From: Polyangiaceae bacterium
Lineage (GTDB): Bacteria > Myxococcota_A > Polyangia > Polyangiales > Polyangiaceae
Reading direction: 5' to 3'
Length of the DNA stretch: 38,865 nt
Assembly (NCBI GenBank): GCA_036271175.1
Contig: DATBBD010000516.1
Span: 1-38,865 of the forward strand
Position numbers and translations under genes: made by a program. The first letter of the stretch is position 1. The number at the start of each line of letters is the position of its first letter. Shown here piece by piece: positions 33,367 through 36,172 of the stretch. The notes under the pieces are model-generated. The model was not told the origin of the DNA and did no database searches. It was given only the letters and a program-made list of their open reading frames with translations.

Positions 33367-35478
33367 CTACTCGACCGCGTCGATTTCGTGCGTGAGCCCG
33401 AGAACGTCTTCGACGAGACCCCGGGCGAGGAGGCTCCCCGTCCGTTCCTCGGCAGCTTTTTCGAAGAACGAGCGCCACTCGCGTCGTTCAGACGCCGTCG
33501 GCTCGACCGGCGCGAGGCCGCGAAAGAGCCGGACGCTGGCGGCCGTGTCGTCTTGTCGTACTCGCGACGCTCCCTCGTCTTCGGCGCGGCTCGACAGGTC
33601 GTCGACCACGGCGCGCACTTCCGGGTCCAGGCGGTCGTAAGCGCCCTTTTGCAAAAGGAGCGCCCCGCTCGTGCACGCGACCGGCATCGTCGTCACCGAA
33701 TCGAGCGAACGCGTCCAGTCGAGTCGCTCCGCGTCGCCGGCCGTGCCCACGACGACCGAAGCACCCACGCGAGGCCCGGCGTGGAGCGCGTCGGCGACGT
33801 CGAGCTCGGCGAGACTCACCGGGGTGATCCCAGGAATGGACGAATAGAACATCGGCGCGAAGGGGTCGGTGTCGAGGGCCGCCAGGCGTCGCCACGCGAG
33901 GTCAGAGGGGCGTCGCACCGGGCGTCCTCGGCTCATGAAGCGCGTGCACCCTTCGTCTTGCCACGACAAAAGGCGATACCCGACCGAAGCGAACCCGGAC
34001 TGCATCTCGTCGCGCAGGTGATCGCGGACCCACTCGACCTTGGTCCACGAATCGACGACGCCGGGGATCTGCAGCGCCGCGACGCTGGGGAGCACCGACG
34101 GCAGCGACTTTGCCGACACCAGAGCACCGTCGAGCTGCCCGGTCCGAAGCCGCGAGAGCAGCGAGCGCTCGTCGCCGCGAAACGCGCCGTTGCCGCCCCA
34201 GCGCACGCTCACGTCCAATTTTCCCGCAGTGCGGAGCGCGAGCGATCGGCGCCACGCTTCGATGAGCCGGCCTCCTGGGGTCGCCTTACCGAGCAACGTC
34301 GCGAACGTGAGCTCACGGGGGCCGTCGAGCGCCGGCCGAGGATCGGCACGTGGCGCGAGCGCCGGCGGTGACGGCGGCGCGCCCCATCGAAGCGGTGACC
34401 GAAACGCGACGAGGCCGGCGACGGCGGCGATGGCGACGCCGGCGACGAGGGACCACGACGGTCGCGTCTCGGCCGAACGGAGCCGGAGCGCCCTCAGAAA
34501 TCCGGTAGCGCAGTCGCCGCGCGCGGCGGAGCGCAACGTGCGCTCGACGGGCGCGAGATCCCGGACGCGGCGCGTCCGATCGTGGACGAGCATGTCGCGG
34601 AGCAACTCGGCGATCGACGGCGGGAATTGGCGCCGATCGAAGCGCGGCACGCCGTGCTCGGTCAGGTTGTGGAGCACTCGACCGACGTTGCCGCCGGCGA
34701 TCGGACGCTTCCCCGTCACGCATTCGTACAACACGACGCCGAGCGCCCACACGTCCGCGCGTTCGTCGATGTGCTCCTCGCCGAGGAGTTGCTCGGGGGC
34801 CATGTACTGCGGCGTTCCGAGCAGCGTCCCCGTTGCGGTGAGCGTTTCGTCGGGCGAGCCCGCGACGGCGCCGAGCGACCGTGCGATCCCGAAGTCGAGC
34901 ACACGCACGCGAGGAGACGCGTTCGACCGGTCCGACACGAGGAAGATGTTGTCCGGCTTCAGATCGCGATGCACGACGCCCGCTCGGTGCGCGGCAGCGA
35001 CGATGGCCACGACCTCGGCGAGGATGGCGCAAGCGTCGCCGAATTCGCGCCGCTCGCTCGACAGCCACTCACCCAAGGTTTCGCCGTCGAGAAAATCCAT
35101 GACCAGCACCGGCCACCGATGCTCGGCCTCGAAGACGTCGTGGACGGGTACGACGCCGGGATGGCGAATCGTCGTGACGAGTCGAGCTTCACGCTCGAAG
35201 CGTTGCTTGAGCTCCGGCGTGAGCGCGAGCCCGTCGCGGACCACCTTGAGGGCGACGCGCTTGCCCGTGAGCCGATGCGTCGCTTCCCACACCGACCCCA
35301 TCCCGCCGCGACCGACCTCGCGAACGAGTCGATATCGTCCCACGTCGCTTCCTGCGACGAAGAGCGACGTGGTGACTCCGCTCGGCGGCGGGCGTGGCGG
35401 AGCACCAGCGACCGCGGCGATGAGCGAATCCACCGACTCGAAGGCGGACGGCGTTTCGACCTCGGCGCCCGAGCTCAT
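33367..35478 (-). CDS. Ser/Thr protein kinase fused through one TM helix to an extracytoplasmic TRAP-type (DctP-like) solute-binding domain
   Basis: Kinase motifs are present: GRGGMGSVWEA, VALKVV, HRDLKPDNIFL, DFGIARS and GTPQYMAPE. TM segment SWSLVAGVAIAAVAGLVAF (aa 341-359). The C-terminal 300 aa follow the DctP pattern (ELTFATLL ... LLSRLRTGQLDGALVS ... ALQIPGVV ... GYRLLSWQDEGCTRFMSRGRPVRRPSDL ... IPGITPVSLAELDVADAL). Confidence 0.85.
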   Translation of the reverse strand: MSSGAEVETPSAFESVDSLIAAVAGAPPRPPPSGVTTSLFVAGSDVGRYRLVREVGRGGMGSVWEATHRLTGKRVALKVVRDGLALTPELKQRFEREARLVTTIRHPGVVPVHDVFEAEHRWPVLVMDFLDGETLGEWLSSERREFGDACAILAEVVAIVAAAHRAGVVHRDLKPDNIFLVSDRSNASPRVRVLDFGIARSLGAVAGSPDETLTATGTLLGTPQYMAPEQLLGEEHIDERADVWALGVVLYECVTGKRPIAGGNVGRVLHNLTEHGVPRFDRRQFPPSIAELLRDMLVHDRTRRVRDLAPVERTLRSAARGDCATGFLRALRLRSAETRPSWSLVAGVAIAAVAGLVAFRSPLRWGAPPSPPALAPRADPRPALDGPRELTFATLLGKATPGGRLIEAWRRSLALRTAGKLDVSVRWGGNGAFRGDERSLLSRLRTGQLDGALVSAKSLPSVLPSVAALQIPGVVDSWTKVEWVRDHLRDEMQSGFASVGYRLLSWQDEGCTRFMSRGRPVRRPSDLAWRRLAALDTDPFAPMFYSSIPGITPVSLAELDVADALHAGPRVGASVVVGTAGDAERLDWTRSLDSVTTMPVACTSGALLLQKGAYDRLDPEVRAVVDDLSSRAEDEGASRVRQDDTAASVRLFRGLAPVEPTASERREWRSFFEKAAEERTGSLLARGLVEDVLGLTHEIDAVE

Positions 35479-35539
35479 GGCTCCTTTATCGTAGCCGAAT
35501 CCGATCCGGGCAGCGACGGGCGCCCCGTAGCACGGCGCG

Positions 35540-36172
35540 TCAGCCGTCGTCCGCCAGCCCTTCGCTCGCGGCCCACCTCCGGATTTTCGCCTTGATCAGC
35601 TGAAACCGCTTCCGAAGGCGCGCGGCTTCGCTCGCAACCTCGCCGTCGCTTCCGTGCTCGGCGCCCGCGAAAACGCGCGCCACGTCGGTCCACTCGAGCC
35701 CGCGATCGAGACGCAGGATGAGCAGCGTCCGCTCGTCTTCCGAGAGACGTGCGCGGAGCTCGGCGATACGCGTCTTGAACTCGGTCTTCAAGAACGGCGC
35801 GGTTTCGGTTCGAGCGCGCTGTTCCAGCTTGGAGAGCAAGCGGTCGGTGCTCAGCGGGATATTGCGACGTCGCGCTCGATGCGGCGCGGCTTGGTATCGA
35901 ATCGCTGCGTGGCGTGCGAGCGTGTAAGCCCACACCCGGACCGTCGAGCGACCCGCGAACGACGGCAGACCTCGCCAGAGATCTTCGGTGAACATCGAGA
36001 ACGCCTCCGTAGCAGCGCTCTCGTCGCCGGTTCGTGCGACGAGAAAGCCGTAGAGCTCCGCGCCGTAGCCGCGAAGGATGAGCGTCGCGGCCGCGGCGTA
36101 GTCGCGTTCGTCGAGCCGAGCAGTCACCGCTTGCTCCAACTGTTCTCGTTCTTCGCTCAAGCGGCCCCGCAC
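35540..36172 (-). CDS. ECF-type RNA polymerase sigma-70 family factor
   Basis: Only the 3' 633 nt of ORF 35540-38251 are credible; GTG 36172 or TTG 36160 is the start. Region 2 reads ELYGFLVARTGDESAATEAFSMFTEDLWRGL ... VWAYTLARHAAIRY. Region 4 reads LSEDERTLLILRLDRGLEWTDVARVF ... RLRKRFQLIKAKIRR. No anti-sigma gene is adjacent. Confidence 0.8.
   Translation of the reverse strand: MRGRLSEEREQLEQAVTARLDERDYAAAATLILRGYGAELYGFLVARTGDESAATEAFSMFTEDLWRGLPSFAGRSTVRVWAYTLARHAAIRYQAAPHRARRRNIPLSTDRLLSKLEQRARTETAPFLKTEFKTRIAELRARLSEDERTLLILRLDRGLEWTDVARVFAGAEHGSDGEVASEAARLRKRFQLIKAKIRRWAASEGLADDG

Follow-up and report, generated by a model that had tools for sequence, protein, structure and literature searches.

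A Ser/Thr kinase fused to a TRAP-type solute-binding domain and encoded between an ECF sigma factor gene and dctQM: a candidate transporter-coupled receptor kinase module in Polyangiaceae

We analysed contig DATBBD010000516.1 of a soil Polyangiaceae myxobacterium (GenBank assembly GCA_036271175.1), a stretch of 38,865 nucleotides hereafter called the window, in which a single gene encodes a Hanks-type Ser/Thr kinase joined through a transmembrane (TM) helix to a DctP-like solute-binding protein (SBP) of the class of transporters termed tripartite ATP-independent periplasmic (TRAP). Four genes are ordered head to tail on the minus strand: an extracytoplasmic function (ECF)-type sigma factor gene (35540-36172, 210 aa), the fusion gene (33367-35478, 703 aa), a gene for a long DctQ-like small membrane subunit (32206-33288, 360 aa) and a gene for the DctM large permease subunit (30702-32198, 498 aa). 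The sigma stop codon is separated from the kinase ATG by exactly 61 nt (35479-35539, minus strand), and a bipartite element, TCACAT-N12-CTCTC, is found 44 nt upstream of the dctQ ATG (33333-33355, minus strand). An earlier note on this DNA had placed the sigma gene, the kinase domain, the TM helix and the DctP domain and had taken DctP as the sensor of the kinase. Its coordinates and domain calls were correct and the architecture is real, but the view of DctP as purely a sensor had overlooked dctQ and dctM, which follow directly downstream.

The fusion protein comprises a cytoplasmic kinase domain at residues 49-305 (34564-35334, minus strand; Pfam Pkinase, E=4.9e-44), a TM helix at residues 340-363 (34390-34461, minus strand) and, after a Pro/Ala-rich linker of about 25 aa, a periplasmic DctP-fold domain at residues 388-703 (33370-34317, minus strand). 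The TM helix is the sole one of the protein; the hydropathy scan flagged one further hydrophobic stretch, residues 145-169, which is part of the kinase domain. All kinase motifs are intact, including VALK (K78), HRDLKPDN (D172), DFG (D195) and APE, and the activation loop carries a PknB-like T-x-T motif (T214 and T216). K78, HRD, D195 and APE are invariant across the fused family, and with these motifs the kinase looks active. The kinase and DctP halves are roughly equal in conservation. A peptide of the form DSxDSLIxAVAAAP, seven positions of which are invariant in the family, precedes the kinase domain (residues 15-27; window 35398-35436, minus strand) and could be a docking or regulatory motif.

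The assignment of the C-terminal domain to the DctP fold, as claimed in the earlier note, was borne out by sequence profiles and by structure prediction. Residues 393-676 matched PF03480 (E=1.8e-12; 47.6 bits, cut-off 23.4), and the NCBIfam model NF037995 (TRAP_S1) matched with E=5.2e-34 and 117.8 bits (cut-off 50). An AlphaFold2 (AF2) model of residues 377-703, which was built on a 25-sequence alignment, reached a pLDDT of 92 and a pTM of 0.88 and showed the two lobes, the long spanning helix and the hinge strands of a type II SBP. The top 50 Foldseek matches of this model were all crystal structures of solute-binding proteins, nearly all annotated as TRAP-type (one was labelled as an ABC-transporter SBP), with TM scores of 0.71-0.86, and more than 310 columns were aligned in 49 of them.

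The conserved carboxylate-binding arginine, which the earlier note had proposed to inspect, is absent. In SiaP, Arg147 acts as a carboxylate selectivity filter, and about 3% of DctP-family proteins are without this arginine (Fischer et al., PMC4646407). Two independent pairwise alignments, to 4nq8 and 4p1l with their strand arginines in 'lkiR' and 'lkvR', placed Ala533 (33880-33882) opposite SiaP Arg147, and this alanine is invariant in the fused family. Because of this invariant Ala a classical dicarboxylate ligand is unlikely, and the solute bound is, in our view, probably something other than a classical carboxylate. A second invariant residue, Arg531, precedes Ala533 by two positions on this strand and could partly replace the role of Arg147 or bind an anionic group. 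The Treponema pallidum protein TatP(T) (Tp0957) likewise has Ala at the Arg147 position, together with a hydrophobic pocket (PMC4646407), and its structure (4di3) was among the Protein Data Bank (PDB) sequence matches of the DctP domain (E=2.6e-6). By analogy with what has been proposed for TatP(T), the ligand may be hydrophobic; TatT proteins bind long-chain fatty acids (PMC11713862).

The two genes downstream of the fusion encode the membrane subunits of a TRAP transporter. DctM scored 291 bits with TIGR00786 (cut-off 268) and E=9e-73 with PF06808; its identity is 97% within the window's own lineage and 70-80% across the other lineages with dctM, and some 80 aa at its C-terminus form a tail with many Ser, Thr, Asp and Glu residues. 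The DctQ-like protein (PF04290, 29.6 bits) has the core DctQ TM helices, two extra TM helices at residues ~55-120 that are not found in the L001 orthologue (L numbers denote loci and P numbers proteins), and an insertion of about 115 aa at residues ~204-315, before the last TM helix, for which neither a Pfam match nor a PDB sequence match was found. The nearest relatives of P, Q and M outside the family were all found in one operon, the TatT-DctP-DctQ-DctM operon of L009: its stand-alone DctP (P0133) is ~28% identical to the window DctP domain, its Q is 39% identical to the window Q over residues 21-360, a span that includes the ~115-aa insertion, and its M is 55% identical. This fits inheritance of P, Q and M as one transporter. 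The QM permeases of TRAP systems depend obligately on an SBP (PMC4646407, PMC5812351), and there is no second DctP-like sequence anywhere in the 38.9-kb window. As the fused DctP domain is thus the only visible P subunit, it is most likely the tethered P subunit of a complete TRAP transporter and not only a sensor, so that sensing of the solute and its delivery for uptake are probably tasks of one and the same protein. With the L009 TatT as query, tblastn gave no match at E<=1 in either the window or any of the other fused-family loci; given this absence of a TatT gene, the system is like the TatT-associated TRAP transporters (TPAT) but is not one of them.

The sigma protein, whose length would be 206 aa with translation from the TTG at 36160, the start used in P0139, consists of sigma2 and sigma4 domains only, at a length of ~200 aa that places it among the ECF (group 4) sigma factors. 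Its profile matches are marginal: Sigma70_r2 scored 25.1 bits (cut-off 24) and TIGR02937 41.8 bits, just below the cut-off of 42.9, and no NCBIfam ECF subfamily model reached its cut-off. With phmmer, residues 12-168 aligned to AlgU (E=5e-6), and sigmaE also aligned. The AF2 model (pLDDT 85) had ECF sigmas at all 15 best PDB ranks in Foldseek, with 173-197 aligned columns covering both domains. As the earlier note had stated, the gene lies 61 nt upstream of the kinase gene with no anti-sigma partner: no Pfam anti-sigma domain was found in its neighbourhood. Two proteins were considered as anti-sigma factors and rejected. The first is a 661-aa membrane protein encoded 50 nt upstream of the sigma gene in the window, in which Pfam finds no anti-sigma domain and in whose place other lineages carry unrelated genes; the second is encoded by a 135-aa Gly/Ala-rich open reading frame (ORF) between sigma and kinase in L007 (732-1139, plus strand), which is glycine-zipper-like and unique to that locus.

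The likeness to kinase-controlled ECF43 sigmas that the earlier note had suggested is seen in region sigma2.2. In ECF43 sigmas the acidic DAED motif is changed to uncharged residues and activation occurs by phosphorylation of a Thr, with the consensus QTTA and Thr in 88% (PMC8999054, PMC13147305). EcfP has the motif STTA and EcfK has QATE, and EcfK is phosphorylated at T51 and at T106 in the linker (PMC13147305, PMC8999054). When the window sigma was aligned to AlgU, A53-A54-T55-E56 stood in place of DAED and S59-M60 in place of the following 'QE' (T55, 36008-36010; Ser59, 35996-35998). The family pattern is A-A-x-E/D instead of D-A-E-D, with 'QE' changed to 'S-M/Q' and the last acidic residue kept. 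Among 121 aligned sequences, comprising the window sigma and the best 120 of 1,209 homologues, the first Asp of DAED was lost in most (Ala in 66%) and Ser59 was present in 88%, while Ser or Thr occupied the ECF43 phospho-Thr position in 42%; the window has T at that position, and the four orthologues compared have A, N, A and A. In the linker between sigma2 and sigma4, which is predicted to be disordered, S108, S114 and T122 are conserved and T124 is invariant. Three of three sigma paralogues examined (47-49% identity) have a Pkinase gene 2 to 5 genes away. From this motif and gene context, the sigma factor appears to be kinase-dependent and ECF43-like in kind.

The bipartite element occurs as one exact copy per canonical locus, on the coding strand, and no other copy was found in the loci examined. 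Besides the window, the copies are at 12141-12163 in L001, 7852-7874 in L004, 11260-11282 in L006, 3279-3301 in L007 and 6963-6985 in L010. They lie 36-47 nt before the dctQ start and between 12 nt (window) and 269 nt from the kinase stop, and apart from the element the spacers between the kinase gene and dctQ are unalignable. The simplest reading is that TCACAT-N12-CTCTC is a candidate bipartite promoter of dctQM. Because a dedicated sigma factor belongs to the module, we propose that this sigma recognises it. Autoregulation of the sigma gene through the element was considered and rejected, since the element occurs before dctQ only and the sigma gene has none upstream. We also rejected a conserved RNA fold of the spacer, as RNAalifold gave -2 kcal/mol and no convincing covariation was seen; Rfam had no match in window positions 29500-38865. 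In L006, a GC-rich tandem repeat of about 90 nt (GAGCGAGCGCGCGAAGGCGGCGGGGGGAGCAGTTCGCC...), resembling repetitive extragenic palindromes or miniature inverted-repeat transposable elements, is inserted between the kinase stop and the element (10992-11259).

Upstream of the kinase gene, the 61-nt spacer contains TACGAT and then an AAGGAG Shine-Dalgarno sequence, and in the orthologues the kinase start is preceded at 9-12 nt by TATACT, TAGTAT or GAGTAT. TAnnnT-like hexamers are found close upstream of both the sigma gene and the kinase gene and would fit constitutive expression of the sensor pair. A scan for housekeeping promoters and terminators gave nothing informative in the module region.

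We searched for the fusion in several sequence collections. A word-indexed search of 5.8 billion proteins returned eight proteins with both Pkinase and DctP (47-95% identity), the other matches listed being kinase alone. Among 185,579 species-representative genomes scanned, the fusion was carried by three, all of them Polyangiaceae metagenome-assembled genomes (MAGs), as are all its named carriers, and 241 million metagenome records yielded three contigs with it. We also searched 1.84 billion cluster representatives (50% identity) exhaustively with a profile, for which 150 matches were listed reaching down to ~360 bits. The DctP part was matched among those listed only by the full-length P0005 and the short P0122, P0328 and P0392; the latter three cover the C-terminal part only and are likely fragments of the family, and the other matches listed were best in the kinase region, so that more distant fusions of Pkinase and DctP may exist below that score. 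With the DctP domain alone as query we obtained probable family fragments (51-56% identity, on contigs of ~1-3.6 kb) and a small group of stand-alone DctP proteins (28-37% identity). The Pkinase-TM-DctP family is a narrow and rare clade.

Grouping by sequence gave nine lineages. The order sigma, fusion, Q, M is found in the window lineage (window, L010, L015 and L016), in L004/L005 (P0002), in L001/L002/L012 (P0006) and in L006/L011 (P0007), where the fusion gene is split by a frameshift in L006; L007 (P0005) has the same order with the extra small ORF between sigma and fusion. In the P0004 locus the contig ends after sigma and fusion, and in the P0003 locus what comes after sigma and fusion is a gene for an unrelated histidine kinase, in the opposite orientation, and no QM. 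L017 is rearranged, with the fusion, a sigma gene on the opposite strand and then Q. L003 (P0008), an error-ridden and frameshifted assembly, has no sigma, Q or M within 10 kb, and was counted as a negative lineage of low weight. Sigma therefore adjoins the fusion in eight of the nine lineages, which bears out the sigma-kinase synteny in relatives on which the earlier note depended, and dctQ, with dctM where the contig reaches, follows the fusion in six of the eight lineages whose downstream DNA can be seen. The gene found upstream of sigma varies by lineage (the 661-aa membrane protein, an M23 peptidase, a 611-aa protein without a Pfam match or a Cys-rich protein) and is not part of the module.

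Taking the layout, the folds and the synteny together, we give about even chances to the reading that the locus encodes a TRAP-transporter-coupled receptor kinase module, in which the P domain senses a solute, the kinase acts through the sigma factor on dctQM, and the same P domain feeds QM. The P subunit of a TPAT-like transporter would be tethered to the inner membrane by one TM helix with the kinase on its cytoplasmic end. Solute binding would close the Venus-flytrap DctP domain, or promote its dimerisation or its docking onto DctQM, and this change would activate the kinase through autophosphorylation of the activation loop at T214/T216. The kinase would then phosphorylate the co-encoded sigma factor, which has no anti-sigma and is partly stripped of the acidic sigma2.2 surface that contacts the beta' subunit of RNA polymerase; by comparison with EcfP/PknT and EcfK/PknS, the likely acceptor sites would be Ser59 (and Thr55 in the window lineage) and S108, S114, T122 and T124 of the linker. 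Once phosphorylated, the sigma factor would bind core RNA polymerase and transcribe from TCACAT-N12-CTCTC before dctQM. DctQM would thus be made when the substrate is present, and the same tethered P domain would deliver the solute to it. Only tentatively, at somewhat less than even chances, do we go on to describe the whole as a self-contained 'sense-then-import' circuit, leading from an SBP subunit through a Ser/Thr kinase and an anti-sigma-less ECF sigma to the promoter of the transporter membrane subunits, for a non-carboxylate and possibly lipid-like substrate.

Several observations weigh against this coupled module. The phosphorylation of the sigma factor is something we infer from sequence and analogy, the T55 position being Ala or Asn in the four orthologous sigmas, and the retained acidic residue E56 suggests that the sigma may not be intrinsically inactive. 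The proximity of paralogues to kinase genes is weak evidence, as myxobacterial genomes carry hundreds of kinases. The TCACAT and CTCTC halves are unlike the usual AAC and CGT motifs of ECF promoters, the rearranged L017 has only a degenerate element with a different spacing, and the sigma gene, lacking the element on its upstream side, shows no hint of the autoregulation that ECF sigmas typically have. Finally, the fusion stands without adjacent dctQM in the P0003 locus and L003, the latter also without sigma, so that neither the transport link nor the sigma link is obligatory.

These two lineages without QM also speak for the alternative that DctP is the input of a receptor kinase and delivers no solute, with dctQM being a regulated output or working with a P subunit from another locus. 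Reuse of SBP-family domains as sensor domains of receptors is widespread (PMC9602780), and the linkage of the fusion to sigma (8/9 lineages) is tighter than that to QM (6/8). We nevertheless regard this alternative as unlikely, if one to be kept in view, given that in six lineages dctQ(M) comes immediately after the fusion, in the same orientation, with no other P gene visible, that TRAP permeases need a cognate SBP (PMC4646407, PMC5812351), and that the presence of the nearest outside relatives of P, Q and M in the one L009 operon fits their inheritance as one transporter.

A second alternative concerns the target of the kinase, which might tune the transporter or other proteins post-translationally, for example through phosphorylation of the cytoplasmic tails of DctQ or DctM or of FHA-domain proteins, with the sigma factor controlled otherwise, for example through its own transcription. 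Several substrates are usual for Hanks kinases (PMC13147305), the Ser/Thr-rich tail of DctM would offer sites, and the orthologous sigmas do not conserve the ECF43-type Thr. Furthermore, the gene for a GAF-domain sigma54-activator directly upstream of sigma in L010 makes other regulatory inputs possible. We judge this alternative improbable, because sigma adjoins the fusion in eight of nine lineages, even where the locus is rearranged (L017) or QM is missing (P0003 locus), and because the sigma has no anti-sigma factor, a degenerate sigma2.2 and conserved Ser/Thr residues where EcfK is phosphorylated (PMC13147305). That the fusion is an artefact, with mis-assembly or a frameshift joining a kinase gene to a separate dctP gene, can be practically dismissed: although the family includes error-prone assemblies (the frameshifted P0008 in L003 and the split P0007 gene in L006), an uninterrupted ORF of ~700 aa with TM helix and linker recurs at 47-96% identity in independent NCBI, JGI, ENA and Logan assemblies, and its presence in at least nine lineages rules out an assembly chimera.

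Around the module, the closest relatives of the window differ upstream of sigma. In L010, L015 and L016, whose five module proteins are 88-97% identical at the protein level, an extra 2.1 kb separates the 661-aa membrane-protein gene from sigma; in L010 this segment encodes the GAF sigma54-activator, which has an HTH_8 domain (2601-4103, plus strand), and no such insert is found in the window (36173-36222). Downstream, a gene for a SurA/PpiC-type peptidyl-prolyl isomerase (29741-30634, minus strand) lies 67 nt beyond dctM on the same strand in the window, and an unrelated gene on the opposite strand occupies this place in L001 and L006, the other two lineages in which the DNA beyond dctM is visible. 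A second Ser/Thr kinase gene, truncated by the window edge (2-1417, plus strand), encodes a product with 40% identity to the kinase domain of the fusion by tblastn. Genes for secreted or surface-type proteins with no obvious link to the module are found on the plus strand at 3053-4759, 5319-9971 and 24664-26667, and encode a GH6 cellulase, a 1550-aa SpvB/TcdB/RHS toxin-like protein and an RCC1-repeat protein.

We then compared the proposed transporter-coupled kinase module with known systems. In PknT/EcfP of Vibrio parahaemolyticus and PknS/EcfK of Xanthomonas citri, an ECF sigma is likewise encoded beside a single-pass receptor Ser/Thr kinase without an anti-sigma. EcfK in particular has a degenerate DAED (QATE, compared with AATE in the window), and the conserved Ser and Thr residues of the window family are in the same sigma2-sigma4 linker where EcfK is phosphorylated at T106. 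The ectodomains of PknT and PknS have tetratricopeptide (TPR) repeats or are undefined, whereas the window kinase has a TRAP SBP, and transporter genes are part of the module only in the window family. In contrast to ECF43, the phospho-Thr is not conserved in the window family and Ser59, at the Q position of DxxDxxQE, is a conserved candidate instead.

On the transport side, classical TRAP systems such as DctPQM and SiaPQM share with the window the DctP fold, the gene order P-Q-M and a DctM above the TIGR00786 cut-off. Their P subunit is free in the periplasm and has Arg147, whereas the window P is fused via a TM helix to a cytoplasmic kinase and has Ala; the window Q, with its insertion of ~115 aa, is about twice the usual length. 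The T. pallidum TPAT (TatT/TatP(T)/TatQM) is closer in that TatP(T) has Ala at Arg147 (PMC4646407) and is anchored to the inner membrane (PMC5812351), and in that the window Q and M resemble those of the TatT-associated operon L009. It differs in that TatT is missing from the fused-family loci and in that the tether is a lipid anchor in TPAT but a kinase-bearing TM helix in the window. The use of one SBP for both uptake and signalling, with the substrate inducing its own transporter, is known from BctC-BctE of the Bordetella tripartite tricarboxylate transporter for citrate (PMC5812351), and an SBP gives input to a Ser/Thr kinase in the mycobacterial GlnH-GlnX-PknG system (PMC8050422). In both of these a separate SBP docks onto the sensor and the output is a response regulator or GarA, whereas in the window one polypeptide contains both SBP and kinase, and a sigma factor is the presumed output.

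In the literature, a review of SBP signalling gives GlnH/GlnX/PknG as the only characterised SBP-stimulated Ser/Thr kinase, and Q-M fusions are the only ones mentioned in a TRAP review. No published description of the P-kinase fusion was found in a search that did not extend to the survey of ECF43-linked kinase ectodomains by Iyer et al. 2020 (Nat Microbiol), and no paper combining PF03480 with Pkinase was found in the searchable literature. This agrees with the remark in the earlier note that no example had been described. ECF/kinase pairs, SBP-dependent signalling and tethered TRAP P subunits are each already known separately, and for a P subunit covalently fused to a Hanks kinase and syntenic with sigma and QM no description was found in the searchable literature.

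The reach of these results is limited, as the fusion family is very small and found only in uncultured Polyangiaceae, and the functional steps are those we infer. The signals of ECF/Ser-Thr-kinase systems are essentially unknown in the literature; PknT 'somehow senses' polymyxin stress and PknS has TPR repeats. With a canonical ligand-binding ectodomain on the kinase, the ligand, kinase activation, sigma phosphorylation and promoter output would each become measurable, and a P subunit fused to a signalling enzyme would bear on how P docks onto and leaves QM and on how uptake is coupled to regulation. Should the proposed circuit hold, it would provide the first case of a transporter subunit acting as a receptor kinase in its own right and the first defined small-molecule-binding input for an ECF-linked kinase, in a TRAP system whose substrate is not a carboxylate and is possibly lipid-like.

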